This document shows, one piece after another, positions 10,758 through 51,563 of a stretch of DNA of 53,850 bases. This stretch comes from Atractiella rhizophila (taxonomy: Eukaryota). The DNA lies in contig MU271488.1 in the NCBI GenBank assembly GCA_021432655.1, positions 1-53,850 of the forward strand. Direction: 5' to 3'. The position numbers and the translations under genes are program-made. Under the pieces are notes generated by a model. That model ran no database searches. It was not told where the DNA came from and saw only the letters and a list, made by a program, of their open reading frames with translations. Each line of letters starts with the position of its first letter. Positions within the stretch are counted from its first letter, which is position 1.

Positions 10758-12076
10758 TCTAGATTGAGCTACGTTAGGTAGATATGGAGACAAAATGCTG
10801 AATTGGGCGTCGAACTCGAGGATAGGGGTCGATTCGCTCGCCGACTGCTAATTTTGTGTCAGGGGCTGCGTGGTGGGACTCAGAGACTGCCAGTAAGTGA
10901 TGGAACACACCAATGCAAGGTCTCCTCGCACAGAACACGAGCCAAAGGTGGCTCTCTCAACCAGAAATTGTTCAAATTGTCGATCGGTCCGGAGCCGAGA
11001 GGGTAGGTCGGGTAGTGTTCTAATCTGCTTTTATTTCGACCAACACCAAACGAGAAGTGACTCTGTAGGGAAGGAACTGTGAGGGAGAGATAGCTTAAAG
11101 ATATAATAGGTCATTGCAAGCTAGGTATTGTGTATAGTGAAGTTGGACTTGATGTGCGTGTTTGCTCTACCAGCGCTGGGTGCACGAGCTTGGAGGCAAC
11201 TTGCTTTAGGGCTGCCTCCGTGTATGCAAAAGAGCAAAGCAGTCTTCGTTATGGTAGTAGGCGCAGCGCGTTTTTAGTCCCGAACATACAGAACGACGTG
11301 GAATAGCCTTGAGACCTAATACTCAGGCTGTCCAGTCTTGCTCGTTCCTCTAGCATCGCTCACTCACACATAATCAGAATGTGCCATTACTGAGCTTTAT
11401 ATTATTGCTAGTTCTAAGCGATGGGTCAGAATCTCTCCACCCTCGCTCGTCCAAGCATCGTTCTTCCCACCTCCTACCTATCTGAGCTCGGCGGCGACCT
11501 CGAATACGACAAATCGTAAGTATCGTCTCCTTCATGCACCTCTACTTCCATTCTCGTCGTCTGAAGCTTACTGTCCTTTACCTGTTCCCAGACTTTCAAG
11601 CTCACGCTTTCTCAAGACTATCAAAGGTCGTCATCGATCAGGTGCCCTCGTAATAAAGGTCTTTCTTAAACCTGACACCTCTCTTTCTCTCCGTACTTTG
11701 GTTCGGAAGCTCAAATGTGTGTTATTTCGATACCCGTATAGGAAGAGGACGAGAAATAACCCTAGATGAGGAACAGCAGAGAAAGAAGAGCTCGCTCTCA
11801 TACCCAATGTCTTGCCTTACGATCGAATACTCGAGACTGAGAAAGCAGGATACCTCATTCGTTCGTGGAAACATATCAGCCTTTACGATCGAATTTCGAC
11901 CCGTCCGTTTCTCAAGGAGGTGGAGAAGAAATGGATCGTCTTTCAGCTTCTGACTGCCCTAAGGGATTGTCGAGAGGCGAAGGTATTTTCTTGTTCCTTC
12001 TGAGTTTGTGGGTCTGCCACTGAGAGAGGTGCAGATTTCTCACGGCGACATCAAGAGCGAGAACATCCTCCTCACA
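10758..12076 (+). repeat. Copy A of a ~1.3-kb direct repeat (VPS15 promoter plus 5' exons)
   Basis: Aligns by eye to 12468-13768 with scattered SNPs and a 17-nt indel near 11095. Confidence 0.95.
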
Positions 12077-12435
12077 ACCTCTCTCCATCTGTACCTCTCC
12101 GACTTTGCCCCCTTCAAACCTACCTACTTGCCCATCGACAACCCATCAGACTTCTCCTACTTCTTCGACACCTCCTCTCGTCGTGCCTGCTACATTGCCC
12201 CCGAAAGGTTCTACGCCGCAGGGAGCGAGGTGGCGAAGAAGAAGGCGGAATTGGAGATGGGAAAGAGGGATGGAAAAGTGACGGAGGCTATGGATGTGTT
12301 CAGTGCGGGGTGTGTAGTTATGGAACTGTGGAGGGAGGGGAGGATTGGTTGGACTTTGAGTGGACTTTTCAAATATAAGGATGGGGGAGAGGAAGGAGAG
12401 AAGGACCGGGAAACTATGCTCAAGGAGATTGAGGA

Positions 12436-12438
<3 letters not shown>
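11421..12438 (+). pseudogene. VPS15: VPS15 5' fragment (kinase-like domain), truncated at a poly-A run; probably an assembly fragment
   Basis: MGQNLS myristoylation motif, LYDRISTRPFL, HGDIKSENIL, DFAPFKP, YIAPERF, MDVFSAGCV. Introns retained. Ends at A29. Confidence 0.8.

Positions 12439-12467
<29 letters not shown>
12439..12467 (+). repeat. A29 homopolymer at the duplication junction
   Basis: Seen directly between VPS15 copy A and repeat copy B. Confidence 0.98.
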
Positions 12468-12470
<3 letters not shown>

Positions 12471-13768: not shown

Positions 13769-16700
13769 GTTCATTTCCACCAGATAGAAGGTGTAATTCA
13801 GCTGAAAGAGATGTAGGAGGGACACGATGCGATGCTTTCGGAGCTGCAAGCCATGTTTCAAGAACCTGTTGTTCAGCTTTTAACCGATCCTTCAAGCGCT
13901 GTCAAACGAGCACTTCTATTTAATATTGAAAAATTGTGTCGTTTCTTTGGACGAGGTAAGAGCAACGACGTGCTCCTGTCACATATCATCACCTACCTAA
14001 ATGAGAGGGAGGATTGGATGCTCCGGGCGGCATTCTTCGAAAGTCTTGTCGGCGTTGCGAGATGTGTGGGAGGGAGGAGCATGGAGGATTATGTCCTCCC
14101 CTTACTCGCACAGGCCTTGTCTGGTATGACAACATTCCTCCGACCTATTTTCCGATTCTCCTGACCTCTGCGCGGCTTAGACGTGGAGGATTTCGTTGTA
14201 ACACGAGCGATCGCCGCCCTCAACGAGCTCGCAGAACTCAAGCTGTTTCAAAAAGCGAAAATTTGGGAGCTTGTCGGCATGCTCCTTGGCTTCCTCTGCC
14301 ATCCTAACCTCTGGATACGACAAGGCACGATCAGCTTCCTATCTTCTGTTACATCACTTACACGGTGTTGTAGGAGCTTCCAGATTTATTGCAACGGTAG
14401 CCAGCCTTCTTCCGGAAACAGATGCGTGGTGCATCCTTTACCCTGCACTACGAAGGCTGCTACGAGCCGATGTGAAGACATTGAGCTACGAAAGCATACT
14501 TTCGACGTTGCAACGACCCGTACGCTGAATCTTTGCCATATTCCCAAACACTCAACACAGGTATGACAGGTTCCTCGAATCGTGTTTGAGGCGGCGGTCG
14601 CATGGTCGGCAAGGTCCCCAAAGTCTACTTTCTGGAAAGGCTCGAAAGGGCAGAAAAAGGTGGCATCCAATTATTCAGATGCAGCAAAATCAGATGAGTA
14701 AGTGCAGCTTTCTTACTTGATTAGTCTTTGAAACTTGGGGAACCAGTGATCGTCAACTGGACAAATTGCGACAATTAGGCATGGAACCTCAGGATGAGTT
14801 GAAGATAATGGCAATGCGCGACTACATTAACAAGCTCGCCGCTGCTCGTCAAAGGTGCTTGCTCCCCTTCTCCAATACCCCCACTAACCGCGAATAGTGT
14901 GTCGCGTGATTCCTTGAATGAAGCGGATAACGCTGGCTCGTTCAACCTTCAAGACTTAGGTGTAACACTGGAAACTATTTTCTTCAATGTCGGAGGAACG
15001 CAAGATGGTGGATCAGGACGCTCGAAACTTCATTCCGTGGATTCGTGGCCTCGGCGTTTTGCACCAGATGTTCCTCGCTCACCTGCTTCTGTTGATTTTA
15101 GTCGAAGCAGAGCGTCTTTCTCTGAGGGCCCTTCCGCGGTTGAAGACCTACGCCGAAAACTTGCAAGAGTAGGAGGTTCTTCGAGTTCCCTTTCCGGGAC
15201 CCCTACTCTGCATGCAATTTCAGATCCTGTCTCTCCCTCCAACGTCAGCGAGCGAGCCATTTCCCCTGCCCTCACCCCTCGCGCAGATTTCAACCCCATT
15301 CTGTCTCCAACAACATCGACTCCAGATAATCCATCGGACTCGACTTCCACGATCAGACCAGAAGTCAAGAAAGAAGCAGGAACCAGTTTGGAACGGCAAA
15401 AGAGCAAGTTAACAGCCAATGGTGTGGAGATCGGAAGAGGAGCTCCCGCTGTTGCGTCTGACCTCTCGAATGCGATGGGAATGATGGACATCGAGGGACG
15501 CTACGCTGGCAGCGCACTCGACGACGACGCTATGTCTGGAATCACTACCCCTGGCTCCCTCTTGATCAACCGACGACAATCGACAAAGGCCGCTGATTTG
15601 CAACGCTTTGTCAGCACCTATGGTAAGACAATGTCTCCTGCTATTGGCATCAATTGATTGCTTATGTGCAGAGGGTTCTGATCCTGGAATCAATCATCTC
15701 CTTGAACGCATCTACCTTGAAAGCTACCGGGAACCGCTACCCGAGTTTGGTAGCTATGTCAAGGAAGGGATTCCTCGTCGACGAGCGCTTAGGGCGAGTT
15801 TCCCCATTCGAGAGCGAGCGCCAAAACGACCTGAAGGGACGCTTATCGCTCATCTCAGCGAGCATACCGATGCAGTCAATGCCATTTCTGTGTCTCCAGA
15901 CCATCTTTTCTTTGCCACAAGTTCGGATGATGGTAGTGTGAAGGTATGGGATACTACGAGATTGGAACGCAATGTCACGAGTCGATCGAGACATACCTAT
16001 AATCAGGGAGGAAAAGTCGTCAATGTCTGCGTGCTGGAGAATAGCCATTGCATTGCAAGCTGCTCAACAAATGGAACCATTTGGGTGCACAGAGTCGACG
16101 TCAGCCTCAGCGGTGCAATGCCCAAGTATGGGAAGCACCGGTTGATCCGTCAACACAAGCTCGATGATGGAGACTTTGCTACTTGTTTGTTACACTATAA
16201 TACAGGTAAATTGCTTCGATATTCGACGTGGTGAACACTGATTTGACTATGTGTTCAGATACGACTTCGAATCTAGTTTACGGCACCTCTAATTCTCTCA
16301 TCCAAACCATCGATCTCCGTACCATGCGGATTCTTTCCACTCTCGAGAATCCACTGCACTTGGGCCCGATAACATGTCTTTGTATTGACAAGAAGCGAAG
16401 TTGGCTCCTCGTTGGGACGATTGGAGGATGCTTAACGCTTTGGGATTTACGTTTCGGGCTCCGTTTACGCTCGTGGTATGTAGGTGGAGGACAGAAGCAT
16501 TCTCTTGGCCGAATACACCAGATATCAATCCACCCAACCAGGGGGAAGGGGCGATGGGTCATTGTTGCTTTTGAGAGTTGGCCCGGGAGACATAGGAAGG
16601 CAAGCGAGGGACTGGAAGTATGGGACATTGAACATGGACGTAAAGTGGAGATGTTCCAAGTGGTGGAAAAAGAGACTTCTCAAGCCTCGCCGGCCGAATA

Positions 16701-17432
16701 CGCGGTTGATGCTAGCGTTGTCAATCTCACTGCGGCGGCAGCGATTGAGAAGTTCCTAGCCCAACTCGACCCAAGGACAGCATCATTCTCGTCCATGTCA
16801 GCCCATCGAGGCTCGGATGCCGATGAAGAATCTGACGAAGAGCAAGAGGCGTTGTTTTCTGCCGCAAGGAATCGTCAAGTTGGGCCCGGAATGCAGACCT
16901 TCTTGGTTGGAAGCGACTACTCTGGCCGAGGGCTCTCGTCAGGTCTAGCTTCCTCCGCCTCTGCCGCTCCAGCAAGGAAAACAGTAGTTCCTCTTGAGAC
17001 AGTTGCAGAATCAGGGGATTCTTCAGCCTCGACTTCTTCATCACATGGTTTCATCGTCACTGCCGGACAAGACCGTAAAGTGAGATATTGGGATCTAGGA
17101 AATGTGGAACATAGTGCCATTATCAGTGGACTAGACCTTGAGGAGGAAAAGCCGAGTTATACGTACAGTTTACCCTTCTGATGCATGGTTGATACTAACA
17201 GCGGTATCGTAGCGTCCTCCGTTCCACCCCGACCATCTATACTGAAATCACCAATCCTGCGAAGAAATCCTCGAATCCATCGCGACCTCACCGTGCAACT
17301 TTGATAGCACAAAATCAAAACAGCATATTGAAGGGCCACCAGGATGTTGTGTCCGCACTTGCTATCATTGACCTTCCTTTCAGATGTCTCGTTTCGTGCA
17401 GTAGGGATGGAGTTATCAAGGTATTTGAGTAA
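13114..17432 (+). CDS. VPS15: Vps15 / PIK3R4 (kinase N-part, HEAT repeats, WD40) with a large internal segment missing
   Basis: Same 5' exons as copy A, then HEAT (VKRALL...NDVLLSHIITYLN...DWMLRAAFF, CHPNLWIR) and WD40 (HLSEHTDAVN, SDDGSVKVWD, AGQDRKVRYWD). Ends DGVIKVFE*. Confidence 0.88.
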
Positions 17433-17681: not shown

Positions 17682-19586
17682 TCAATACCGAAGCCTCCAA
17701 GCTCCATCCTGCACATCTTCCATATCGAACTCGTTGACAAACCCGTAGCCACCGGGCTCGGGAGCATCCTTTCGATGAGGAACAGGGGCAGGTGGGGATT
17801 CGTACAACTTCGGTTTCCTAAGATTATATCTGGTCAATATTGTCCAAAGAGGCAGGAAGAATCGTACTTCTCCCCCGCCGCAATAGAAGGAAAAGAGGCG
17901 AACAGGTTCGGGTTCTTTGGTAGAGGGGCTTCTCTAAATTATGATGACCACAGTGAGATTCGCTTTCACCTGTCATAGAGAGAAAGAGGGCGGGAGCTGA
18001 CTTACGAAAAATAGGGATCCTTCACGGCTTCAGCAGCCGTGATGCGTGTCTCTGGATTGTAGGTCAAGAAGGAGGATAGGAGATCGAGCCCTGAGGAATT
18101 GAGGAACTTAAATGTCGATCGTAAGGAAGAGTACCTAGTTACACGCTTCAGTTTCTCATCCAGCCAATCAACATGGTGTATAAACGCACGGAGGGTATGA
18201 AGACGTGTTCAATGCCTTGTATCCTTTCAGTTCTTTTACCTCAGGCCATGCCTCAGTTGATGGAGCACCAAGGAGTTTTAGGATCTATTGCCATTCAGCA
18301 GCAGAATGGAGTTGGTCCCTAAGCTTTGACGAAAAAAATCATAAAGGAAACGAACGCGATTGATCTGGTCAATCTCTCCCTTTCCCTGCATCACAGGTTC
18401 TCCCAGGACGAGTTCGCCAAAAATGCAGCCTACGGACCAGAGGTCTATCGCTGTCGTGTACTCCTGCGCTCCCAGAAGGAGCTCTGGTGCTCTACAACAG
18501 GATAGTATCAGCAGCTCGAAACGGAGCGGGGGATGAGAGGAAGCACACCGATACCATAGGGTCACAACGAGAGGGGTCATGGGTCTCATTGGATCCCCAA
18601 ATGTTCTTGCAAGCCCGAAATCCGCAAGCTTCAGCTGTCCGCTTTCAAACCCATACTCGTCAGCAGTTCCTTGAAGCATAAGCATGGGATGACCCAACCG
18701 GTTGTTCAGAAGCAGATTAGACGTTTTTAGGTCTCGATGGATGATCCAATTGGCATGCAAATGCGCGAGAGCGGAGAGGAGCTGGGAGAGAAGAGTCTTG
18801 ATTTCGGATATGAGGAAAGGTTGGGGGTTGAGCGTGAGCAGCGACTTGAGGTCGTGCTCAATGAAATCAAACACCAGATACACCCTTTAGAGAAATTGTT
18901 AGCCATCAAGTTCAACAAGGGGAGAGCGAGACGACTCACTGCGTTAATGTGTCCCCCACGACCACCTCACGTAGCCGCACAATGTTTTCGTGATCGGTAG
19001 CCTGATCATCTACTAATTCAGTGATAGGAGACGTTGATGATGTGGAACGCACCTTGAGTAAACACTCTATCTCTCTCAACGACGTGATTGGAAATCCATT
19101 CCTCGCCCCTTCCATCTTCAGCTTCTTCAGGGCCACAATCTCGCCTGTTTCTTTAACCCTTGCTCTCGAAACGATCCCATAACTTCCTGTCACCAGAGCA
19201 AATCGATTTGATTCTCAGCGAAGTAAATTGATTTAGAACAGTACCTTCCTCGATATGGTTAAGCTTCTCATAAGCATAAACGCTCCTACAACCCACAAGT
19301 GGCGGATGTAAAGCTCTGAGGTCTCGCTTTGGCAAGTTTCTTGTCCTGCCTCTTTCCTCCCGGGCAGAAGCAGAAGGAGACGCAGCGGCAGAAACGGTCA
19401 AGCGAGCAGGCGTCGCTGTTGCGCTCGTGCTTGCACTCATGCTGGACTTATGTCGTTTTCGTGGTGGTGGTACGCGGTCATCTACATCTTCGTCTGCTTC
19501 CCACCGTGACTTCTTGCGACCTGTCTCGACTGGTCAGCCGTGGAAAAACATCTTTGAATAGGAAAGGACTCACTTTCGCTATACAT
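17682..19586 (-). CDS. CDK11: PITSLRE-type cyclin-dependent kinase (CDK11/CDK10 family)
   Basis: [59 protein letters not shown]. Confidence 0.92.
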
Positions 19587-19911: not shown

Positions 19912-25538
<5,627 letters not shown>

Positions 25539-26243: not shown

Positions 26244-26297
26244 ATCCAAAGTTCAAATTTCGGGAATCAACTCTATAACTCTAAAAAAAAATAAATC

Positions 26298-28318
26298 ATG
26301 GCACCATCAATCGATGTCCCCAGCTACACCAACGGCCACGCCAACGGGGTCTCCGACAAATCGACCCACGTACCAGAGTATGGCTTCACCCCTGTCGACC
26401 CTACTGCAGCGCGCAGGGTGCCAGAGCCTATCTCCATCACTTCGCCCAATACGACCTACGATGGAGATTTCATCTTCTCAAAATACGTCCACCATTCCGC
26501 CGAGGTGAACGTTATCGAGGACGAATCCTCTGGCGTTAAGGTGAACAGGTACGAAGTTAGGCCAACCGAAAGTGTCTGGGAGTTCAAGACGGAGAGGAAG
26601 GTGCCAAAGACTGGGTTCGTCTCTTTCTCTCATTTCCTTATTCCTCATTCTGACTTTGAACCTTTTAGGTTGATGATGGTGGGATGGGGAGGAAATAACG
26701 GGTCCACTTTGACAGCTACGCTCCTTGCCAATAAGCACAACCTCTCCTGGAAAACGAAGGAGGGTTTGAAGACCCCGAACTACCTCGGCTCTCTCGTTCG
26801 TGCCTCCACCATTCGCATTGGAGTCAACCCAGCCACTGGGAAGGATGTTTATGTACCCTTCTCCGATCTTCTCCCCATGGTCCACCCGAACGATCTCGTG
26901 ATTGGTGGATGGGACATCAGCGGCTTCAACCTCGACAAGGCTATGGAGAGGGCTGAGGTCCTCGATTGGGATCTCCAGCGCCAAGTTGCCCCCATGATGA
27001 AGGATATGAAGCCTCTTCCCTCAATCTATTATCCTGACTTCATCAATGCCAACCAGGAAGGGAGAGCGGATAACATTATAGCTGGTAATGACAAGTGGGA
27101 GCATGTCCTGAAGATCCAGAAGGACATTGAGGAATTCAAAGCGAAGAACCAGTGCGCTCGCTCCATTTCCTTGCTGCCCATATTAACGAGGTTGGATGCA
27201 GGTTGGATAAAGTCATCGTTCTCTGGACCGCCAACACGGAACGTTACTCCGAGATCATCCCAGGAGTGAACGACACGGCTGCGAACCTGCTCGAGTCCAT
27301 TAAGACCTCGCATGATGAGGTTTCTCCATCGACCATCTTTGCCGTCGCTTGTATCCTCGCGAAAGTGCCCTACATCAACGGTGCTCCTCAGAACACCTTC
27401 GTCCCTGGTGCGATCGACCTTGCCGAGCAGCACAAAGCTTTGATCGGAGGAGACGACTTCAAGTCCGGACAGACCAAGATCAAATCCGTCCTGGCTGAGT
27501 TCCTCGTCAATGCTGGTATCAAGCCCAAGTCCATTGCTTCCTACAACCATCTGGGCAACAACGATGGATGGAATCTCAGCGCCCAGAAACAGTTTAGGAG
27601 CAAGGAAATCTCTAAGAGCTCCGTCGTCGATGACATGGTCGCTTCCAACAACTTGTACGTATCGTTACTTTCTTCGCGCACATTTGCTGATGCCAAACGG
27701 ATAGATTATACAAGGAAGTCAAGGACCCTAACGTCACTGAGAAGGCGATCGCTGCTGGTGCGAAGGGAACCAAGACTGAGCACCCCGATCAGTACGTTGT
27801 GCTCCGCCATAACCCTGAAGCTTGGTCTAACAAGTTCTGCAGCATCATCGTCATCAAATATGTCCCTGCTGTCGGTGACACTAAGAAGGCGATCGACGAG
27901 TACAACAGCGAGATCATGATGCATGGCTCGAACGTGATCAATATCTTCAACCAATGCGAGGTTGGTCTTCGCCCATTCCTCCCTCCACCTCCTTGGCTGA
28001 CCTTCTGTTAAGGACTCTCTCCTTGCCTCCCCCTTGATCCTCGACCTGACCATCCTTGCCGAGCTCTTGACGAGGGTGAACTACCGCGCCAACGGGACTG
28101 GCGAGTTTGACACGCTCCATTCCGTCCTTGGTCTCCTCTCCTACATGCTCAAGGCACCTCTCACGAAGCCCGGAGAAGATGTTATCAACTCGCTTGGAAG
28201 GCAGAGGAACGCTCTCGAAGCCTTCTTGAAGGCTTGCATTGGTCTTCAACCCGGAAGCGACTTGATGAACTTCACCTATTTGGAGAGGTTGGAGTTGGAG
28301 AAAGCCCAAAAGGCTTGA
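26298..28318 (+). CDS. INO1: myo-inositol-1-phosphate synthase
   Basis: [59 protein letters not shown]. Confidence 0.98.
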
Positions 28319-28801: not shown

Positions 28802-31694
28802 TCACTCCTTTCCCTTCCGCCCTTTGTCTTTCTCCCTCTCCGCCTTGTTGATAACCTCGATCGCCCTCCTCTTCTTAGCCTCTCTTTTCTCCTCCGCATA
28901 TTTATACAACGCCGTCCTCAACGCCATGAGCTTCCGAAACTCGACATTATTCCACAATGTCTCCGCCACGGCTGCCAAGTTGTCCCCGTCATGACGCTTG
29001 AACACAGACGTGTCTCTCCATCCTTCCTTCGGGATGAACTTGGCCGGTAAACTTTCGCTGAGTTCCGTATTCTTCTCATCCGTCTCCAGCGCCATGGCGT
29101 CCTCCCCCCTCGCCTTTCTTTCCTCACACTCAGCATCCATGCTCTCCAGCTCCTTCTTCATCTCCACAGCCCAATTGAAGATGAGCTTCCAGTCCTTGTC
29201 GTAGCGTGCATATTCGGTGTCGTATTTTGCCTTGAACCGCTTGTAGTCGTTCTCGCTGTTGATTACGTAGGAATCTGGATCATGGGAACCGGAACCTGGC
29301 TTCCTCCTGGTTGGAGGAGGGCGCGCCGCACCGTCTTCGACGGACTTGAGGATTGGAGTGGAAGAGGATGAAGCTCGAGACTTTCCAATCTTGGATCTCT
29401 TCGGTACTTCTTCGCCATCCGAAGGCTGCACAAACCGCCTCTGCTTCTTCGACGTTAGCTGCTGTCCTTCGCCTTCATCACCGGACCAGTCTGGGGCGGC
29501 TCGCTTTTTTCCTTTCTCTTGTACCTTCTTGAGCTGCACCTTTTCCTTCTGAAGGTCTGCGCTCTCCTCGCTCTCCCCATGAGAGATCTTCTGCTTCTTC
29601 TTCCCCTTCTCAGCTTTCTCCATAGGAGTCGTGACTTCGCTATCGCGTGACCGTTTCTTATCTTTCGTGGATTTACCGCTTGGAAACGAGGAGAGAGAGG
29701 AAGCACTGGTACTCGGATTGGAGGAGGATGCTGCATTTGTCATCGGAACCGAAGCGATAGAAGCTGTAGCTGGAGAACCGGAGGACGCTTGTTGCATCGG
29801 TTTGGCGGTCGGATTGCGGTTTGAAGCTCTGGGTTTCGCGCCCGGAAGCTTGGAGAGATCTGAAGTACTGGGGAGAGGTAACTGCTTATTCTCAGCTCCC
29901 TTCTCCTTCTGATCCTCTCTCGATTCCTTCCCTTTCTTTTCCTTTTTTTCCTGTTCCCTCTCCACCTTCTCTCTCTCCTTCTCCTTCCTCCTCTCCCTCA
30001 TCTTCCTATCATTCTCCTCCAACTTGATCTCCGCTTCAGACATCACCCTCTGTTTCTCCTCCAACTCAAACTTCCTCCTCCTCAACTCTTCCTCCTTCTT
30101 TTCCTTCTCCCTTTTCTCAACCACAGCCTTCTCCTTCCTCTCAGCAACAGTAGCAGGCTTCTCCTTCTCTTGCTTCTCCTTCTTCTCAGCTACAGTCTTC
30201 TCTTTCTTTTCCTTTTCCTTTTCCTTCTCTTCCTTCTCTTCCTTCTCCTTCCCTCCACCACCCTTCGCCTTCCCAACCCCCTTCTTCGTCGCACCCTTGG
30301 GCAAAATATAATTCCTCCCTGCCGGCGCGGACCCAGCCTGGACGTTCGACCCACCAGCTTGTTTGCTGGAAGCAGAAGGGGTGGCAGTGGAAGTAGAAGT
30401 GTTCTTCATCTTCGAAACATCCTTCTGCACAGGGATCGCAGTCTGCATCGTGGTGTGCGGAGGTTCTGAAGTAGAGGAAAGGGGATGAGGAGGAGCTTCC
30501 GAATTCGGATTAGCAGAAGGAGGACGATGAATGGTGGTGTTGGAAGCAGGTAGTGATGGCTGTTTGTTGACGGGTGGAGTATTCGATTGTGGTCGGCGCG
30601 GAGGAGGATTCTGGGTTGAAGGAAGTGGAGCTTTAGAATTGAGTGTGGGAGTATTCGACTTCGATACGGCGTCTGGCCCTGCGTGAGAGTGAGAAGGAGT
30701 CGAGCGTCCGCTGCCCGACGCGTTCGAAGCGGTGGAGCCGCTCCTGGGTCGAGAGAGGGCGTGGGAGGCGAGTTGGTGTTGGTGTTGATCTTTGAGGGAT
30801 CGGGAAGGATTGTCGAATACGGATGGGAGGGACGAGCGGGGTTTTGCCCCGCCTTCGTGCGAGTGGATGATCTTGGATTGATGCGCCGCCGTCTTCGCTA
30901 CCATCTTCATTCCCTTGCTCTGAAACACGGATTTGGCGCCTCGTCGACTTTCGAGATGAGTGAGAGGGCGATCGAGGACTTGGATTCTACCCACTCATGA
31001 TATTAGTCCAACCGACATCCTCGGCGGCCGAGAAAAAGGTGAATGAGGAGAAGACGGACCTGTGACTCTCTTTCTCCTCCTTCAGCTTCTCATTCGCTGC
31101 CCGCGTTTGTGCTGCCGTCCGCTCATAATGTTCGGTGTTGAAATCCCTCTTGACTTGAAATGACTCCAGAGCCTTTCCTTCCCTGTATGCTTCTCCACTT
31201 AACGTCTCTGTCTCAGAGTCGGCGGGCCGGTAAAAGACGAGATGGTGCTGTTGGGCGCCGTTGGAGAGAAGTGCATGCGGCCCAGCAGTGGTGGAAGTTG
31301 GGATGTAAAGGTTGTTCTACCAGAAGAGGGAGGGTTAGAAACTGTTAGCATTGAGTGCCAGCAGGAAAGAGAGTATCAGGCGGTAAGCGAGATGATGTTT
31401 ATATATTCGTTTCTCAGCGCATTCTTTCAACAAGAATTCACACTCCCGAGCAGGACAGCTCTCCGCTCTCCAGAATCCCCCGTCGTACGTAACACGAGAG
31501 GAGTGGAAAGAACTTACCTCTCCCAAATCGACACCCATTCCTCTCATCGTGCCATCCTCCATAATCTCCCCATTCTTCATAGCCAGCGCCATGCTATCCA
31601 ACACGTCCAGGGTGAGAGAAAGATGGACCATAGGCGGCGGAGAGGCATTGCCGCCAGCCAAAGGGGTCGGGTTCAGGACTATCGTTTCTTCCAT
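28802..31694 (-). CDS. Low-complexity nuclear protein with a C-terminal occludin/ELL-like domain (putative ELL elongation factor)
   Basis: Short N-terminal exons (MEETIVL...), a 730-aa exon with P/S and K/E tracts, then INSENDYKRFKAKYDTEYARY, which resembles the ELL/occludin domain pattern. Confidence 0.6.
29900..30260 (-). repeat. Low-complexity K/E-coding purine tract
   Basis: Pyrimidine-only-like run on the plus strand encoding KEKEEKEEKEKEKEKK... on the minus strand. Confidence 0.85.
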
Positions 31695-32112: not shown

Positions 32113-34267
32113 ATGGCAACTGCAAGCCGTCGAGAAAAGGCGAGTCTCTTCTCTTCATAACATAGTATTGTTTTCGCGTTACTGTTTGCATCTGTGAGCA
32201 TTGCAGATGCCACAATATACAACATAACACTCTAACGCACGAACTGTATTCTTACCCAGCATTTTCTAGTTCAGGACAGAAACAGAATTTAATTTGCTGC
32301 TACTGTTTCTTCAAACCATCTTTCAGAACATCAGAACTATTATCCGTATTACTGTTTTAGCTGCATGTTCTACATCCCGACTAATCGACGCACACATGTT
32401 GAGAATAGTATACGGACGATGTATTTTGATTCATTCATTGGTAAATAAAGATATGTTTAAACACCAGAACTGAGGCGAATTCTTTCGTAGTTATGTCAGA
32501 AGATGAAGCGAAGTCTTAAAAGGATGTCAAGGTGTTAAATGGGAAAGTCTGATTTGTCGCAGAAACTGTTTTTTAATTTCGCGAATCTGAGAGTGTGTAT
32601 GAGCAACATAATGTTCTTCTGACTGGAAATCAATATTGCTCAACCTGACACGCTTCCCGCTCTTTGACAGGAGGGATGCCACACTCCTTATGAGAGCATG
32701 ATTAAGAGATACATTGCGAACATATCGCAATCATACATTCCACCTCCGTATCCTTCTATTCCTTCCAGCCTGGTGAACCTACGTTGTTAAGAGCTTTCAG
32801 TTTTAGACGTCTGCTGAATATCATTATCAAACCCCCACTTGCTTCGTGCTCCAATTTTTGTTAAAGTAGCTCAAATACCGATGGGTGCCTTTGGGCGTTT
32901 AATAATACAAATTTCTATCTTTCTCAGGTACATTCTGTTGATGTGCCCAGAAAGTTCCATTCTGAAAATCGCTTTCTTCCTTGCCCTTTCACGGACATCT
33001 TGTGCCTTTTACCAGATTTCTCCCTCTTATCTCCCTCACTCCTGTCGATAGATTTATCACAATGACTTTCACTCGACGAGCATTAGCAAAAAGACATATT
33101 GTCTTACAACTCCCTCTTCCCAATGGATCTATCTTCTCATTCGTGATGTTTTTTATAGGGCCTCCAAATCCACCGTCCTATCATTTACGGCAACACAGCC
33201 GTTCTCATCACTCCTGACGAGAAGCACTTATACGCACTTGACCACACACACAAATGGACTGTGGCCGTTCGAAGTGCAGCCTCGCCACCAGCACAAGCTG
33301 GCGAAGAGAGGGATCCGAGACATGAGGTTGGAGGGTACGACGACATTAGCCATTTCATCAAGCGGGTGACCTTCAAATTACACGACACCTACACCCAGCC
33401 TAATCGGCGTATGTCACTTCGTTCAATTTTCGTATTCGGAGACCAAGAATCCAGGAACTGACTGACGCTAATGGCAGACGTCGATAAACCCCCTTTTGAG
33501 GTAACGGAGACCGGATGGGGCGAGTTCGATATCCAGATTCGGATCCAGTTCACGCAAGAGAGCGGAGAGAAACCGATATCGTTCATGCATCACCTCAAAT
33601 TGCACGCCTGGAACTGGGATGCATTGACCATCAAGCCCTTACCTCTTACCCCTCCACCATCAGCAAAAGCGTTGGACGCCCCACCACCTGCAGAGGAACA
33701 GGAGACAAAACAGAATATAGAGGGAGAGACGAAAGAGGAAGAGAAACAAAAGGAAGGCGCGGACCCTAACCTCAGTTACCCTCCACCAGTTCAAACGCCA
33801 GTGCAGTACTCTTTTCTTTCATCTCGTTTCACGCTGCCTATATTTATTGATCCTATGTTAAGTTCCTGGCAATACGACGAGATTGTCTTCACTGACCCCA
33901 CCACTGCATTCTATCAAACACTCCTCGCAAATCAGCCAACACCACTCCCACGGCGCGTATGTCTCCTTTCCACCTTTTAGTCACAAAGATGCTAAGTCAA
34001 ACAATTGTTCAGGCACGCCATCCATGGCGGAAAACAGACCCTCCAATGGGCGCAGGTGGGAATATAGGTGAATTATCGATCGAAACCGAAGAAGAGGAGG
34101 CGGATAGACTCGATGAGGCGAGAGTGAAGATGAGGATCGAAATTGAGCGATTGAGAGAGAAGGTGATGGCGGTTGAGAAAGAGCTTGAATGTGCGTCACC
34201 TTCTACTGTACACGATGAGCAATACGCTGATAAACGGTTTGCAGCGCATGGATGGGGGGCAAAGTAG
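32113..34267 (+). CDS. YAF9: YEATS-domain protein Yaf9
   Basis: Exon 1 [13 protein letters not shown] intron 32140-33158, then [58 protein letters not shown] and a C-terminal coiled coil. Confidence 0.92.
32165..32333 (+). ncRNA. Candidate intronic H/ACA RNA with snR30/U17-like motifs
   Basis: Hairpin 32165-32218, H-box ACAACA at 32219, GTATTCTTA at 32246, AAACCAT at 32313, ACA at 32328. Imperfect match to the family. Confidence 0.3.
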
Positions 34268-42440: not shown

Positions 42441-45400
42441 ATGGAAGGGAAGACGATCCCGATCGCCCAAGGTTGGAAGTGGAGAGCCGCGAATAAGGGC
42501 CCTGAGGAAGAATGGAGGGACTGCTTGCACTTCCCTTCTGAGGTCCATGTCGAGCTTTTGGAGAGGGGATTGATCCCCGATCCTTTTCGAGGTTTCAAAG
42601 AACATGAGGTTCAGTGTCAGTCTCTCCCAACAGCCGTCAGCGCTCCAAGGGTAAGAAGGACAGGCTGATGTAGACATCAATAGGGATATCTCATACCCCT
42701 TTCTCATATCGAACCACCCTCTCCCCTCCTCAGTTGAAAGCCGGAGAGAGGGCAGAGCTTGAGTTCGAGGGCCTTGATACGTTCGCTACCGTCTATTGGG
42801 ATGGCAATAAAATTCTGGACGCCAACAATATGTTCAGGACGTGGAAGGTCGACATCACGTCCTTGCTTCAAGCAGCGAGGAAGGATGTAGAGCTTAGATT
42901 GGAGTTCGAGAGCGCATGGGAGGTCGGGAAGGCGCTTGACGGAGAATACGGCAAGGTGCGCCATCACGCTATCGTAGCTCGAGTTTGTTCAACCTGCTAA
43001 TTGACGAATGTGGTGTCTGCGATCGAATCGATATAGGTCAGAGCTGGAAGCACCAATTTGGGCGATCCGTCACGAGTTTACGTGAGAAAAGCCCAATACG
43101 GTTGGAGGTCCGTCTTCCTCTCCGCCGTCTGCATTCGTTCGCGCTGAAGAAAACAAAATAGGTGGGATTGGGGTCCCGAACTCATGACGGCCGGTCCCTA
43201 CCGCCCTATCTCCCTTCGCATCTACCATTCCCGTCTCTCCGACGTGCACGTCCAAGCTCTCGGCGATCGGCAGCTCAATGTCTCCTTCTCCATCGATGGT
43301 GCTCACTCCGACCTCAAATCCCAAATCGCCGTGTCCTCCGTTGTGGCCTCGAAGGCGAAACAGCTCTTCAAGTCCTTCGATCTCCCCGTCGTAAACGGAG
43401 AGGGGAAACTCAAACATTCTTTCACCAAGGACGAGGTCGACCTTTGGTTCCCTTTCGGATACGGCGAACAGGCCTTGTATAACGTGCAAGTCGTGCTCCT
43501 CTCCAAAGATGGTGAAAGGATCCATGAAATCACTAAGACCGTTGGATTCCGAGATGTCAAGCTCATCCAGGAGCCTTTAGAGGAAGCCGATCAGTATGGG
43601 AAAGGCACGACTTTCTTGTTCGAAGTCAACGGAACCCGCATCTTCTGTGGTGGCTCTAATTGGATACCGGGAGATAATTTCTTGACAAGGATGACCGCGG
43701 AGAGGTACAGGGATTGGCTGGAATTGATGAAGAGAGGCAGTCAGAATATGGTGCGCTGTCCATTCAATCCGTATTTTCTCTCTCTTTAGCCACAACTGAC
43801 GGAGCTGTGAATAGGTCAGGATTTGGGGTGGTGGGATCTACGAACCTGACATCTTCTTTGACATTTGTGATGGTACGTCGCTACCTCTTCCTTAGATACG
43901 CAAACCTCATGATTCTTGAACCTGCGACGTGTAGAACTCGGTATAATGGTCTGGCATGATTTCCAATTTGCCTGCGGAGTCTACCCGAAATATGAAACGC
44001 GAGTGTATCCCCAATCCCACTCTCTCGCTTCCTCCGATGCCCAGTCGACCTTCGGCGAGAACGTGAGACAAGAAGTCATCGATAACGTCAAGAGGCTGAG
44101 GCATCATGCCTCGCTCGCTATTTGGTGCGGCAACAACGAGGTACGTCCGCCTACAACCCTCTAACTAACATGGCTGAATGGCTAACTGAATCTCCCCCAC
44201 TAGGACTACCAAATGATCCTTCAGTGGGACCTGTCTAAGGCTAAGGACCCAGAAGACTTACTACCTGCGAGGAAACTGTATGAGCACGTCTTCCCGGAGC
44301 TGGTTGAGAAGTATATGGGCAAACAAGGAGAAGGAGGCGTGCCTTATTGGTTTGGATCGCCTTACGGTGGGAAGGGATGGGACACGGCAGACCCTACCGT
44401 TGGAGACGTGCATCAGTGGGATATCTGGGGTGGAAAGGAAAGGCCGTATCAGGATTACGACAAGATGGGTGGGAGATTCGTTAGGTTCGTCCTTTTCGTT
44501 ACAAACAGAAAAAACTATTGGCTGATATCACCTGGTAAATTAATTTGTATTTTTCTGGAGGACAGCGAGTTTGGAATGCCGTCTTTCCCTGTCATGCGCA
44601 CCATCGACTGGTGGATGGATGGCGCTCCAGCGAAGGAGTACTACGCCCAGTCGCCATGGATTCAGCAGCATGTTCGTGCTGGAGCTTTCGAGAGGAGGTT
44701 TGCGATCGCCATGTGTGAGAATTTCAGGGTGACAGAAGACCTCGAATCGTAAGTCATCCTCTTGGATTCTCGCGTTATCTTGAGGAATGGGCGGCACACG
44801 AGCTGACCAAAATCGGTGTGGTGTCGACGGACAGATATACCTTTCATACGCAAGTTATGCAGAGTGATGCCGTGGGACACGCCTACGCGAGTTGGAGGAG
44901 AGCCTGGAAAGGAAAAGGGAAGGAATTCGTAAGTCCCTTATCTCAATCGGAACGAGGGTAATAGAGCAACATCTAGACGTCTGGGGTGCTTGTATGGCAA
45001 TTGAATGATTGTTGGCCTGTCGCTTCTTGGGCTCTCGTAGATAGCTTTGTATGTCCTTTATTCCGATTTATCGCGAGCGAAAAACTGAAATCGGCGCAGT
45101 TGAGGCCGAAGCCTGCATTTTACACTATCGCGAGGAGCCTTGCGCCAGTCGCAGTAGGGATTCTCAGAGAGGTTGAACAAAATCGACCGCATGATCGTCC
45201 ACGCCAGGTGCGTTCTCCTTTCGTCAACTTGGGTAGAGCTTTAACATTGTGGACTCAGTACTATGAATTTGGGGCAATGCGGTCCGTTAGTGCGACCGTT
45301 GGGATTTGGGGCACCACTTCTCTTCCCATCTCACAGGACGTGACACTCTCCCTGTCGTTTTACGATCTGCAGTCCTCCTGGCATCACTCTGTTACGCAGG

Positions 45401-45831
45401 CGGTCACTCTACATCCTAATCAAAGCACCGAGATCATCTCCCTTCCGTGTCCCTCTCCCTCTCGCAAGAATCCCACGGACGTCGATCCCTCTGCCACAGT
45501 CGTTGTGAGCGCAAAACTTGTTGCCAGGGATGGAACCGTCCTAGCACGCTACACCGACTTCCCTCAACCCTACCGATATCTTGAGTTCCCGGACCCTGGA
45601 GCGAAGATTACTGTCGATTACGATAATGGGACAATCGAAGTTGACGTGCAGAAACCGGTCAAGGCACTGTTTTTGGAGGCAGAAGGAGTGGATGGTCGGG
45701 AGGTAGAATGGAGCGATAATGCTATAGATGTCGTACCTGGCGATAAACAGACGCTTAAGGTGAAAGGTCTTAGGAAAGGTGGATGGGTGAAAGCTCAGTG
45801 GATGGGGAAGCCAAAAAGCTCAAAAATTTGA
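42441..45831 (+). CDS. Glycoside hydrolase family 2 beta-mannosidase
   Basis: FEGLDTFA, RKAQY, WDWGPELMTAGP, FCGGSNWIP, VWHDFQFACG, LRHHASLAIWCGNNE, GDVHQW, SEFGMPS, LVWQLNDCWPVASW. Confidence 0.95.
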
Positions 45832-46218
45832 TTCCTGTCCTGTTCTAACATGTTGTGACAAATAAAGAAATAAGACATCTCAACACCTGTATTCCGTTTA
45901 TTGAACTTAGACCGCAAGATCGCCGTCCGCTTTCTGAATTCTGTCAGGTACAGCTGCAGTCCCAAAGTGGTTCCACTTTCATTCGTTTGTTGGGGTTGTG
46001 TTGTGACCTTGCGCTTGTTTTGTCTGCTCCGCGAAGGAGGATAGGCACCACGAAGTAGCAAGGAACGGAGAGGCTTAGTGGGGAGTACGCTTGGGCGGTG
46101 ATAGCGCAACGGACAGGAAAGAAGGGATTCATTACATCGTAAGGGGTATCGTTCAGAACACCTGCCCCATTGCACATTCAACAAGCGTTAGGATGTTGAA
46201 AGCGGACTTCCTTACCAA

Positions 46219-46875
46219 CTACCATCCTAATCCTAGGTACACCTTGAAGCCGACTCCTCTCAAAGAGACATCTATCTCTTCGGGTATCCTCTCCCTCCAG
46301 CTCCGTGAGCGGAGACCTCTCATACCGCGACCATTTTCCGCGTCCGAATGCGAATGCGGCCGCTGCGACGTTTCAGAAGGAGGGGATGGCATCAAGGCTC
46401 GGGTCGTAGATTTGAACAATCGCACTAGCGGAATCTGGGAGATTATGGAGGAGGACTGTTCTCGGGCGACGGGATCGTCAGCAGGGGGATGTTCGGATGA
46501 GCTGGTGTAAGTGGCGTTGCGGGATAGAGAAGAAGAAGGATTGAAGCTGAATGAGGCATTATTGGCCGACGGTGGGAAGAACTCCTGCAGCGAAGACGAG
46601 CTTCCAAACCAGCATCGCTGAATTCTCTCTTGGGATGGTGATGATGAAATATTCATGCTTGAGTTTGAGACAGCCAATGAGAGGGAGGAACATGGGGAGG
46701 AGGAGCCTATGTCGAGCCAGCATGTGCTTGAGAATATTCCAATGAGGAGGAATGAGCAATAAATGCAGGGTTTGTGTTGGAGGCAAAGCGAGATTAGGAA
46801 GAGGAGGACGAAATAATGCGGATACTGAGGGAAGGGCAGGAGCAGAAGCAGGAGGAAGTAGCGGAGGCAATACAT
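46219..46875 (-). CDS. BC10/BLCAP-family membrane protein with a Ser-rich extension
   Basis: MYCLRYFLLLLLLP...HKPCIYCSFLL resembles BLCAP (MYCLQWLLP...RKPCTIC). Single coding exon. Confidence 0.8.
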   Translation of the reverse strand: MYCLRYFLLLLLLPFPQYPHYFVLLFLISLCLQHKPCIYCSFLLIGIFSSTCWLDIGSSSPCSSLSLAVSNSSMNISSSPSQERIQRCWFGSSSSLQEFFPPSANNASFSFNPSSSLSRNATYTSSSEHPPADDPVAREQSSSIISQIPLVRLFKSTTRALMPSPPSETSQRPHSHSDAENGRGMRGLRSRSWRERIPEEIDVSLRGVGFKVYLGLGW

Positions 46876-47560
46876 CCTACACTCGAGAATATCAGCACAT
46901 CATTCTTGGCTTAAAAACTCTGAAACCAGCCTGGTTAAATCTGATGTTGGTACGAGAAGACAATCACAAAGCTTTTCAGTCCGAACAGAACCAAAGAATT
47001 ACCACACACAAGAACGGCGGTTTAAACGCAGCCCATGGGATACATACGGGATAGATTGTGATACACCAGAAAAGTTGGTAGGAGGAACTGGGGCTTCCTT
47101 ACATAGCGCATACGTACAGTGGACTGTCAACCCCAACTCTGCTATAGGGCAGACGGAAATGAGACTGAGGATTAGGCATTTTACGGGTGAACGTCAGTTT
47201 CATCGTCTGAATGACTTCGATTACTAGTATTGACGACAAGAAAAGTCTGAGAGAGAAGGAACAGAAGGCTCTGGTACGCTTGAATGATGAGACTGAGAAA
47301 AAGCTCACTTGTTAGTCCACAAATCGTTTAAATAGAAGGGCGGGAAGGCTGTCTTATATGCCTCTGGCTCTGTACGTGATTGGAGAAATGAGAGCGCAAG
47401 GTCGTAGTTGTAATAAGATACGTAACAGTGGCGGTGCAAATGTGCCCATGTCTGGTAACTCACGTGATATAAGGACGTGGGTCATTCTTTATTCTTATTT
47501 CATTTTCAACAAGTGCTGCTACATCTTGTAGTAGTACACATCGCCAATAACCTTAGCAAG

Positions 47561-49091
47561 TTAGTGCGTTTGTTTCATAGAAGCAACCTCTGCAACCTGG
47601 GTTCCCAACTCCTTCTTCACCTCTCCCCACGTAAACTCGCTCTCTTCCATCAACTGTTCTTTATCCATCTCAAACCCAATCAACGTCTCGAGGCATACGC
47701 GTCCGCATCCAGGTTCGAGCTCCTTCACCTTTTCGGGAGAGATCTATGCCAATGTTTAGCGATCCATGATGGGAGGGAAGGCGTAGCGGGAGAGGCGCAC
47801 AAAAGATCCTCCCGTCCGGCCAGCGAATACCATGTGCACTCCAGCGGCAGATATGGTGCCGTTCCTGCAGCTACGGGCGAGGTGGAAGAGGTGTTGGGTC
47901 TCCATCTACGTCGCCGGGATAAACACCGTTTCATTAGCAAGTTTTTTGATACTCAGGCAGGAGGAAACATTCTGAAGGAAGCATACCTCGAGCGTGGAGA
48001 CAGAAGGATGCTTCGCTTTCAGTTTGTTGAGGAGGTCTTGGTTGGAGTCGTTGAAAGATGCGTCTTAAGACAATTATCATTCCAAGCAGTGAATGGAACG
48101 GGGAGACCTACCAATCCGTCCTCCCCAAAGACAAGACTGTAAGTAAGGAAGTTTCCGGTTCAACGTGAACACATACCCTGAGATGAATAAAAGGAATCTG
48201 CAGAGGCGTGCGTAGCTCCGATCTGCACAATCTGATCTTTTCCCTCTCCAGTGAATTCAGCTTTCACGTTCTTCCCCAGCTGAGAACCAATCAGCACAGT
48301 ATCAACCAAACAGAACACACTAACCAGTTCCGTCAGCTGGGGATCTGCATCCACCTGTTCCCAGTTTTAGAAGTCTGCTTTGACCAAGAGGGAAACCAAT
48401 TGGACTCACAGTCCCGCTGATCAAATAAGGGTCTCCCTCCGAGTTCGAGGAAGAGAAGTAATCATAGTTCCTCGTCACCGCGAACGCGCTCTTCGGTACG
48501 CTGAGTGCTCCAGGAGGAACTTCGTCAGTGAGTCCTCCACAGCTTCCGAACCTGTTCTGATACTCATTAATTGTGTATACGATTGAGCAACGTGGAGAGA
48601 TGAAACGAACCGAATGATAGCCATGTCCCCATTGACCACTGCTCGCGCTTCGCGGACGAAGAAGTCTGTCATCGGGAAGCCCTGAGAAAGTTGGTTCAGA
48701 AAATGTGGGGCAAAATGAAAGAGACAGGTGATGTACCATCCCTGTTGCACAGATAGAGATTGGGACTCCTTTATACTTCCCAGTGAAGGTAAGGAACCCT
48801 CTCTGAGAAAGCACTTCGATCGGCTTGGGATCCTTGTCCAGATGGACTGAGATTCGTCGGGCTCGCACAAGATCTCCTGCAGCGCAACACATCAATCGCT
48901 TTGAAAGAGGACATCAGTATGGAATGAACGACGTACCAACTATCAGAATTCGGTTGGCGAGCTCACCCGTCTTCAGGGACAGGTGGTAGACTCGTCCTTC
49001 GCCATCGCGAGCTTGATCGCAAGGTTAGTGAAGTTTGGAGCATCGATGAACTTCACATACGAAAGTTGGCGTCTGCAATTTGGTGTTTCAT
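47561..49091 (-). CDS. Purine/uridine phosphorylase family protein
   Basis: MKHQIADANFPRDGEGRVYHL, ANRILIVGD, SQRGFLTFTG, GMGFPMTDFFVRE, RFGSCG, ADSFYSSQG. Confidence 0.9.
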
Positions 49092-49094
49092 ACT

Positions 49095-50879
49095 GTGTTC
49101 CCCCTCTTCATGGCGAGAGTCAAACTGTCAGAATGGGTGCGACATAGCCGAGTACTTCTTTTCTTATGGTCGGAACCGGTTATGGGTCTCTCGAAGGAAC
49201 TGCGCCTCTCTTTACAATTCTTTTCTCTTCCGCTTTGGTAACTGCATCTGCCACTCCTTCTTCCTTTGCCGCGGGTTCTATTTCTCCTGAGGTGCGAAGC
49301 GTGCCAGGTAAAATTTCCTTTAGCGCCAAATAGTCCTAACTTGACCTACGACTGCCCTCGGTCCACGTTCTCCCGTCATCACTAGACATCGTTGTCAATC
49401 AGCACCAGAAACTCAACAAATCGTTTTCTTTACCCAGACCTGACCGTAGTCCCACACCGCGCTTCCTCGTGCTAGTGCACGGTTTACGCGTTCAGTTTGC
49501 ATTGTTGACTATTTCTTATCCTCGCTCATTGGTTTTCGCTATACCTAGTAATCCCGTTAGTGTCTAACCCGTAGAAATTAAAACATGTTGTAGACACAAA
49601 ATCATTGGATCCTTAGTAAAGATACGTATTCGTCGCAGCCCTTCTCCTTTACGGTAAACAAATCAACGTTTCCGACGGGTGTACGTCCGTGTTTATGAAA
49701 CGAACATGATACCCGTAGAGGGTGTTCTAACTCCCTAAAGTATTCCAAAAGTGCCTTTGCGTCTTGGTCGTCTCCTTATTTGTCTTTGGAGCATAATGGT
49801 TTCGTTGTTTCACATTCAAAATTTAACCTAGTTTCCTCTTTCTAACCCTGTCGGTTGTCGGTAGGTACGGCTTGCCAGACAGGCAGACAACTTTTACATG
49901 ATTCACGAGGTTTAATAGTTCGGGTCCTCTTTTCACATCTTTAGTATTGGGAATATACGAATAGTAGTTAAAACCCCGAAGTTCCCAACTCTGTCGAACG
50001 TACGCCTACGATCGGGTTGTGGAGAGGACTTTACATTAGTTTGGAACACTGCTTTACTTTCCCCTGAGCCTAAAGCTTCAAATATAACTCCAAGGTAGGC
50101 GTTTCCCGTCCTGCTACTCAGTGAATAGTCTGAGACCTTCCGGGACGTTAATAGAAGGTCGAAGACTCGAAGTGGATACGCCGAGTACAGAAGGAGAGTC
50201 CTGTTATCGGAGGCAGCAGAGAAGCGGCACACTTTCCGTGTCTTGGAGAGGGTTTTTTCTTTCTCTCTGAGTGTCATCAGTCTGGGTACTTACATTTCTG
50301 TGGTAATTTGGTCCGAGGTTGCTTTAGCTATCAGAGACGTAGCCGCAAGGTAGGTCGCATTTAAAGGTTTGACTACTTCTGCTAGTACGTATCGTGCTTC
50401 CTCTGGTCAGCAGAGCAGGCGGAAAAGCCGCAAACAAGAAGAAAAAAGCGGAGTTGACGGATCTATTATATTTCTCCTTCGTATAGGGTTTATGTAGTCA
50501 AAGAAATCGCTACACTCATTTCTTACTTTCCTGCTTGCCCACCTAACTCGAACATCATTCGGGATCGCCTCCAATACCGTAGCACGTGCGCTCTCGCAAC
50601 TCCCGTTACTAACCCTCCCGCTACCGCAACCTGTCAACCAACCTATCTATACCTAAGTAAAACACCGTTAAAACTAACTCGCAAAACACTTTCCTTCCCT
50701 CCCTCCCAGCAGCAAAGAGCCGTCCCTATGCATGCATTGCCATAAATATTTCATGCCCCGCCTGCTAAAGTTCTCAGTTCAATAGCAATAAAATGGCGGG
50801 CGGCTTTGTTGCTGCGAAACACGAGGGCTAAATAGCTGATCAGGAACGCTATTCAGGGACCTATTCCTAATTCATTTGC
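49095..50879. other. Mirror segment: sequence reversed without complementation (probable assembly/gap-fill artefact)
   Basis: No coherent gene in the six normal frames. Plain reverse and plain complement readings give ORFs with canonical introns, an ATG in good context and a TATA box. Confidence 0.9.
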
Positions 50880-51452
50880 NNNNNNNNNNNNNNNNNNNNN
50901 NNNNNNNNNNNNNNNNNNNNNNNNNNNNNNNNNNNNNNNNNNNNNNNNNNNNNNNNNNNNNNNNNNNNNNNNNNNNNNNNNNNNNNNNNNNNNNNNNNNN
51001 NNNNNNNNNNNNNNNNNNNNNNNNNNNNNNNNNNNNNNNNNNNNNNNNNNNNNNNNNNNNNNNNNNNNNNNNNNNNNNNNNNNNNNNNNNNNNNNNNNNN
51101 NNNNNNNNNNNNNNNNNNNNNNNNNNNNNNNNNNNNNNNNNNNNNNNNNNNNNNNNNNNNNNNNNNNNNNNNNNNNNNNNNNNNNNNNNNNNNNNNNNNN
51201 NNNNNNNNNNNNNNNNNNNNNNNNNNNNNNNNNNNNNNNNNNNNNNNNNNNNNNNNNNNNNNNNNNNNNNNNNNNNNNNNNNNNNNNNNNNNNNNNNNNN
51301 NNNNNNNNNNNNNNNNNNNNNNNNNNNNNNNNNNNNNNNNNNNNNNNNNNNNNNNNNNNNNNNNNNNNNNNNNNNNNNNNNNNNNNNNNNNNNNNNNNNN
51401 NNNNNNNNNNNNNNNNNNNNNNNNNNNNNNNNNNNNNNNNNNNNNNNNNNNN
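50880..51452. other. Scaffold gap (573 N)
   Basis: Run of N. Confidence 1.
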
Positions 51453-51563
51453 AGGGGCGAGATCGCCACTGTTTTCTCTTACGAAGAGAAGTGGGCCCTC
51501 GTTGAGGAGCAGAAGGTTGTCGAGGAGGATGTCGATGTCGAAAGAGCGGATGAGAAGAACTGA
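51453..51563 (+). CDS. C-terminal fragment of a gene whose body lies in the gap
   Basis: RGEIATVFSYEEKWALVEEQKVVEEDVDVERADEKN* followed by UTR-like sequence. Confidence 0.6.
   Translation, partial: RGEIATVFSYEEKWALVEEQKVVEEDVDVERADEKN

Follow-up and report, generated by a model that had tools for sequence, protein, structure and literature searches.

A 1.8-kb block beside a scaffold gap of Atractiella rhizophila is written in reverse without complementing

The final contig bases before a gap of 573 N on contig MU271488.1 of the Atractiella rhizophila assembly are plain-reversed, i.e., written backwards without being complemented. The window, by which we mean the whole stretch of 53,850 nucleotides that was analysed (positions 1 to 53,850 of the contig), carries this gap at 50880..51452 (unstranded) as its sole run of N. 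The mirrored block comprises 1772 bases (49108..50879, unstranded) and is supported by k-mer ratios, by the loose ends of sequencing-read contigs and by a protein alignment that becomes possible after reversal. It is legible only in plain reverse, which equals the plain complement of the opposite strand. The data below demonstrate that the block is mirrored, where it begins and ends, and which gene lies hidden in it; it is a verified artefact of the data and no real feature. We consider it almost certain that the text at 49108-50879 is absent from the organism and consists of the true letters of the locus, reversed and uncomplemented, at the correct place and with the correct length beside the gap. 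The DNA of the organism is ordinary here, and biologically there is nothing new.

On the true plus strand, 50879 would directly follow 49107, and 49108 would abut the gap. Letter-by-letter agreement with this order covers about 30 letters at the near end, where contigs reach up to 122 letters, and 203 nt at the far end; for the intervening 1.5 kb the evidence is k-mer statistics alone. Both ends of the block are therefore anchored where one reversal of the whole block would place them, and the middle is supported by the k-mer test. The original prediction, made from the letters of the window, was that 1.8 kb of mirror-image DNA is present at this site, and this was borne out by the k-mer test, by codon usage, by the read contigs of three sequencing runs (X1, X2 and X3) and by the alignment of a protein, P0002. 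The start of the block had been placed at 49095, which is wrong; the read contigs follow the written text to 49107/49108 and the block starts at 49108. Reads spanning the junction as written had been named as the outcome that would speak against a mirror image, and the read contigs went against the written text.

K-mer and codon-usage signature of the block

In real DNA, k-mer counts are nearly equal between the two strands, a symmetry that does not extend to plain reversal. The remainder of the window served as the training set for strand-symmetric Markov models (k = 2-6), and a log-likelihood ratio was calculated as the written minus the reversed reading. The block gave ratios of -24 to -35, so that the plain-reversed reading is favoured, and control blocks of equal size gave +8 to +113, with all 26 in favour of the written reading. 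Each quarter of 49108-50879 scored between -5.3 and -9.6, and all four were below the minimum of controls of the same size (n = 113, four of them negative, the lowest at -1.4). When 400-bp windows were used, all 16 that start between 49101 and 50601 were negative; elsewhere in the window no comparable negative run was found, just scattered singles or short groups. The right flank of the gap scored normally in six out of six windows of 200 bp.

Codon usage pointed in the same direction. With a first, cruder model, real frames scored higher than mirrored ones in each of the 27 control blocks, and this order was inverted in the mirrored block (12.9 for real versus 23.2 for mirrored frames). A second model was fitted to 16 ORFs that are supported by Pfam or RNA, and it ranked the sense frame first in all 16 leave-one-out tests. 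In the block, the best segments of this model were located in mirrored frames, with scores of 9.4, 6.4, 6.3 and 6.2, against 4.6 at most in the written frames. The lengths of open reading frames did not discriminate between the four readings of the block.

There is hardly any chance that the block is real as written, i.e., that it is an unusual, gene-poor or foreign segment whose k-mer composition is odd by chance or due to a different origin. Nothing speaks positively for this reading, although ORFs in the written frames reach a length of 118 aa; the three written ORFs that were tested all lack a Pfam match, and the ratio of every quarter lies below all controls. Furthermore, we know of no product of replication or recombination that is reversed without complementing, which the antiparallel arrangement of DNA strands does not permit. 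The same reading of the block is contradicted by the read contigs and by the alignment of P0002, as described in the following sections.

Read contigs at the left junction and the phosphorylase gene

A run search with 47310-50879 listed 18 public runs, none of which contains half of the query words; the best were X1 with a share of 0.35 and X2 with 0.34. The low word share is compatible with absence of the written block and was not weighed as evidence. Contigs of four public runs (X1-X4) were aligned to 45000-50879. X1 and X2 are DNA-type runs from one sample, and X3, with spliced contigs, belongs to a different study and carries a different organism label. The sample of X1 and X2 is possibly that of the assembly itself, and the two runs are still independent of the assembly software.

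At the left junction between correct text and mirrored block (49107..49108, unstranded), where the read contigs clip, five loose ends were found, two each in X1 and X2 and one in X3. Clipping occurred at both 49107 and 49108 in X1 and X2, and at 49108 in X3. No loose-end contig of X1, X2 or X3 runs on into the written text beyond 49107/49108. The loose ends continue for 51-122 letters that do not fit the written text. Their 30-letter consensuses reproduce the block in backward order, beginning at 50879, or at 50878 where the contig was clipped at 49108. The match to the reversed block was 30/30 in at least three loose ends and 29/30 in one variant that is present in both X1 and X2. A block that is real as written is contradicted by these contigs from three runs, which depart from the text at 49107/49108 and then follow it in reverse. 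Read depth was zero in nine out of nine bins of 49116-50879 in all four runs, which was not weighed as evidence; the bins left of the block were covered in 21 out of 21 cases in X1, X2 and X4.

In the part of the window from 45000 to 49107, X1 and X2 each have two variant contigs at the junction and many differences of 1-5% from the window. Together with the copy of P0002 on another contig, these read variants suggest the presence of two haplotypes or of a duplicated region represented as separate scaffolds.

The gene to the left of the junction encodes a purine/uridine phosphorylase on the minus strand (47561..49107; P0001, 318 aa, PNP_UDP_1), as indicated by an identical annotated protein, by Pfam and by spliced contigs of X3 and X4. 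The 46-aa exon beside the block is 100% identical to the annotated P0001, for which NCBI gives the name purine and uridine phosphorylase (Atractiella rhizophila) and which matches PF01048 (PNP_UDP_1) with an E value of 1.8e-28 and 100 bits, compared to a curated cut-off of 25.1. The gene is composed of many short exons, and its minus-strand ATG is located at 49091-49089. The X3 and X4 contigs lack nine to eleven short segments bounded by CT..AC, which shows that these contigs represent spliced minus-strand RNA.

Positions 49092-49107 are the genuine 5' leader of the phosphorylase gene and are correctly written. The spliced X3 contig reaches 51 letters into the reversed text and, because this contig is spliced, the reversed text beside 49107 is transcribed 5' leader of the phosphorylase. 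It had been predicted that reversal brings a promoter side to the phosphorylase ATG, which agrees with the entry of the spliced X3 contig into the reversed text. After reversal, 1585 nt separate two divergent ATGs. The remainder of the reversed block between the two divergent start codons (49311..50879, unstranded) measures 1.57 kb, and its part nearest to 50879 is the 5' leader and promoter of the phosphorylase.

Within the phosphorylase gene, the spliced contigs of X3 and X4 skip 48065-48175 yet retain seven letters in between. These correspond to 48113-48119 with one difference, and imply a 7-nt micro-exon between two short introns on the minus strand. Together with two leftover bases of the preceding exon, the micro-exon adds three codons that are absent from the annotated P0001. 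A search for DNA of relatives gave 56 pattern matches of P0001 in metagenome contigs, with no relative among them, and an exact 31-base pattern from the first exon gave 0 matches.

The hidden membrane-protein gene and the gap

The plus-strand frame to the right of the gap (51453-51560, 36 codons followed by a stop) gave one match, P0002, among 1.84 billion representatives. P0002 (KAH8920845.1 at NCBI) is a 271-aa hypothetical protein of Atractiella rhizophila whose gene lies on another contig, 72409 bases long. When the window as written was compared with P0002 by local tblastn, the match was confined to residues 236-271 (35/36), and the N-terminus of the protein had no match on either strand. 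With 49108-50879 reversed in place, residues 1-68 also matched (66/68, E 6e-38). This second match is on the plus strand, ends exactly at the edge of the gap and is colinear with residues 236-271.

Because residues 1-68 of P0002 align only after reversal, a real gene is present that is read from right to left, uncomplemented, from 49310 to 49108; a block that is real as written would not give this result. The first coding exon of the hidden gene (49108..49310, unstranded, found by tblastn with P0002) has 67 codons plus 2 bases, with the start codon at 49310-49308, and it is the top codon-usage segment of the block. The last 36 codons and the stop (51453..51563, plus strand) are correctly written and correspond to residues 236-271 of P0002, with 35 of 36 identical. 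The window's copy of the gene and P0002 are 97% identical. A further expectation, that reversal puts a mid-exon at the gap, was likewise confirmed, since residues 1-68 are flush with it.

P0002 has five 19-residue hydropathy peaks of at least 1.6, from which we conclude that it spans the membrane several times. No Pfam family matches it (0 families at E values up to 1), and it has no detectable relatives: a search gave nothing beyond P0002 itself, which is also the single one of the 1.84 billion representatives matched by the frame right of the gap. Residues 69-235 of P0002 (167 residues) take up 501 nt of the 572 nt available at the gap, which gives a surplus of about 71 nt, the size of one local intron. 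The gap would thus contain P0002-like residues 69-235 plus about 71 nt of intron size. Neither the right flank nor any other sequence in the window overlaps the reversed block, so that the window does not allow the gap to be closed. When exons were chained ab initio on the mirrored strands, the result was weak single-exon models (scores of about 4) and no convincing gene, and the top model missed the P0002-like exon. The reversed 49311-50879 may contain a further small gene.

From left to right, the true plus strand would first carry the phosphorylase gene on the minus strand with its ATG at 49091, and then the leader and promoter of this gene, represented by the block from 50879 downwards. 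About 1.5 kb of intergenic sequence would follow, and after that a plus-strand gene for the 271-aa multi-pass membrane protein, with exon 1 at 49310-49108 running into the gap, its middle part in the gap and its end at 51453-51563.

An ordinary misassembly, for example one that inverts the segment (reverse complement) or joins it chimerically to a different locus, has a vanishingly small probability here. Misjoins and inversions are frequent at contig ends next to gaps, and the two haplotype-like read variants complicate assembly. Against this, strand-symmetric k-mer statistics are insensitive to reverse complementing, so that an inverted block would pass the test that this block fails. Furthermore, tblastn on both real strands did not detect the N-terminus of P0002 in the text as written, and no sequence of the reversed block recurs elsewhere in the window.

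The original prediction also contained a gene read from left to right on the plain complement, with an ORF at 49095-49304, a 59-nt intron and a short last exon. The complement peptide is present in the text as proposed, with complement frame 0 open from 49095, and the gene model itself is the antisense of the real exon 49310-49108. A second spliced gene had been proposed on the plain reverse, and in that reading one real exon, 49310-49108, is demonstrated. The complement ORF is open for four further codons to the left of 49108, and 49092-49094 is a stop in that frame. The 59-nt intron at 49305-49363 was rejected, since it covers the genuine start codon in antisense and its 5' site is atypical. 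Its length, branch site and 3' end are plausible; the 5' site has a C at +3, which occurs in none of the 11 RNA-supported introns of the window.

Ten out of the 11 RNA-supported introns measure 45-81 nt. The eleventh, an intron of 432 nt on the minus strand at 46877-47308, is far longer than these ten and is supported by an X4 contig. It adjoins an ORF with a BC10 domain (46222-46899).

Another reading is that the true sequence was complemented in place with its order preserved, so that the true plus strand would be the plain complement read from left to right. Complement frame 0 is open for 101 codons from 49095 and has a moderate codon score of 6.3, both of which fit such a change. The reads after 49107 carry the letters from 50879 downwards and not the complement of 49108 and upwards. 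In addition, complementing in place would put the P0002-like exon on the minus strand beside the phosphorylase ATG, facing away from the exon at 51453-51563. We therefore give next to no credence to complementation in place, and the plain reversal of the block is retained.

Origin of the reversal and other content of the window

The reversal lies inside one contig, which excludes a scaffold-level orientation error and also any DNA transaction. That the artefact arose at the gap is suggested by the contact of the block with the gap, by its right length and place, and by the lack of a DNA transaction that reverses without complementing. A software error rather than biology had been proposed as the explanation, and this is supported by the reads and by P0002, which fit the block only when it is reversed. 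The error would stem from a string-handling slip in a program that extends or patches a contig end towards a gap. Possible slips would be the use of a complement in place of a reverse complement, or bases that were prepended when they should have been appended. Most likely, a slip of this type during contig-end extension is the cause. The block adjoins the sole N run of the window, and it is only this position that favours an extension or gap-closing step.

The block may also have been reversed after assembly, during finishing, format conversion, submission or copying, and not by an extension or gap-closing program; we regard this as distinctly improbable. The right length and place of the block, and a gap size that fits the missing coding sequence, would be expected of any later reversal of a segment. 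On the other hand, there seems to be little reason why such a step should single out precisely the 1772 bases in front of the N run, whereas a contig-end extension would naturally be a unit of this kind.

To place the artefact, we compared it with known categories. Like orientation misassemblies, it is found at a contig end by a scaffold gap, breaks a gene across the gap and causes sharp clipping of reads. It differs in that an inversion is a reverse complement and therefore real on the other strand, whereas here neither strand of the record exists in the organism. A biological inversion does not describe it either: the N-terminus of P0002 is absent from the written strands, and a reverse complement would leave the k-mer statistic unchanged.

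A closer formal parallel is swinger DNA of the rule A<->T + C<->G, which has reportedly been detected in deposited records, among them the Kamimuria wangi mitogenome (Seligmann; PMC4942731). In that source, it is interpreted as the product of an unusual polymerase mode and is said to be found for the A<->T + C<->G rule only, for reasons that are unknown (PMC4942731). As far as this description goes, both cases concern a sharp-bordered segment of a record that matches expectation only after plain complementing, so that the transformation is formally the same. The difference is that the DNA-type contigs of X1 and X2 and the spliced contig of X3 here carry ordinary, untransformed sequence at the junction. 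As the organism's reads show normal sequence, the block is an artefact of the record and belongs to no biological class.

Deliberately reversed decoys and null models, to the extent that the material consulted describes them, use the same transformation, which keeps composition and length and destroys biological signal. In contrast to the block, they are intentional and do not enter the databases as genome sequence. In the sources that a literature search made available, in part only, we found no description of this artefact class in genome assemblies.

The case means that 1.8 kb of a public fungal scaffold corresponds to no molecule. Six-frame searches, read mapping and synteny analysis all miss exon 1 of the hidden gene, as well as the promoter and leader of the neighbouring gene. 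Comparing the likelihoods of the written and reversed readings under a strand-symmetric k-mer model provides a simple, reference-free detector that could be applied to every gap flank in draft assemblies. In addition, the block is a counter-example, tested with reads, to the interpretation of plain-complemented database segments as products of unusual polymerisation. We tentatively raise the possibility, which seems somewhat unlikely at present, that a systematic bug in contig extension has produced mirror-written flanks at many gaps and that the 'swinger DNA' of deposited records has the same trivial origin. If this were true, many other gap flanks of this assembly, and of public assemblies made alike, would hide genes from every standard search, and the k-mer statistic would find mirrored blocks without reads.

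The window as a whole is eukaryotic and intron-rich. Its longest open frame, of 730 aa (28805-30994, minus strand), has no Pfam match at an E value of 0.001. When ORFs of at least 130 aa were searched, 14 out of 62 had a Pfam match, and these represent ordinary housekeeping content between 11963 and 45828. Among the Pfam assignments are protein kinases (11963-12469 and 18281-18886), a WD40 protein (15566-17178), the largest subunit of RNA polymerase (20694-23959), myo-inositol-1-phosphate synthase (26295-27916), a YEATS protein (33462-33977) and a GH2 beta-mannosidase (43148-45828).
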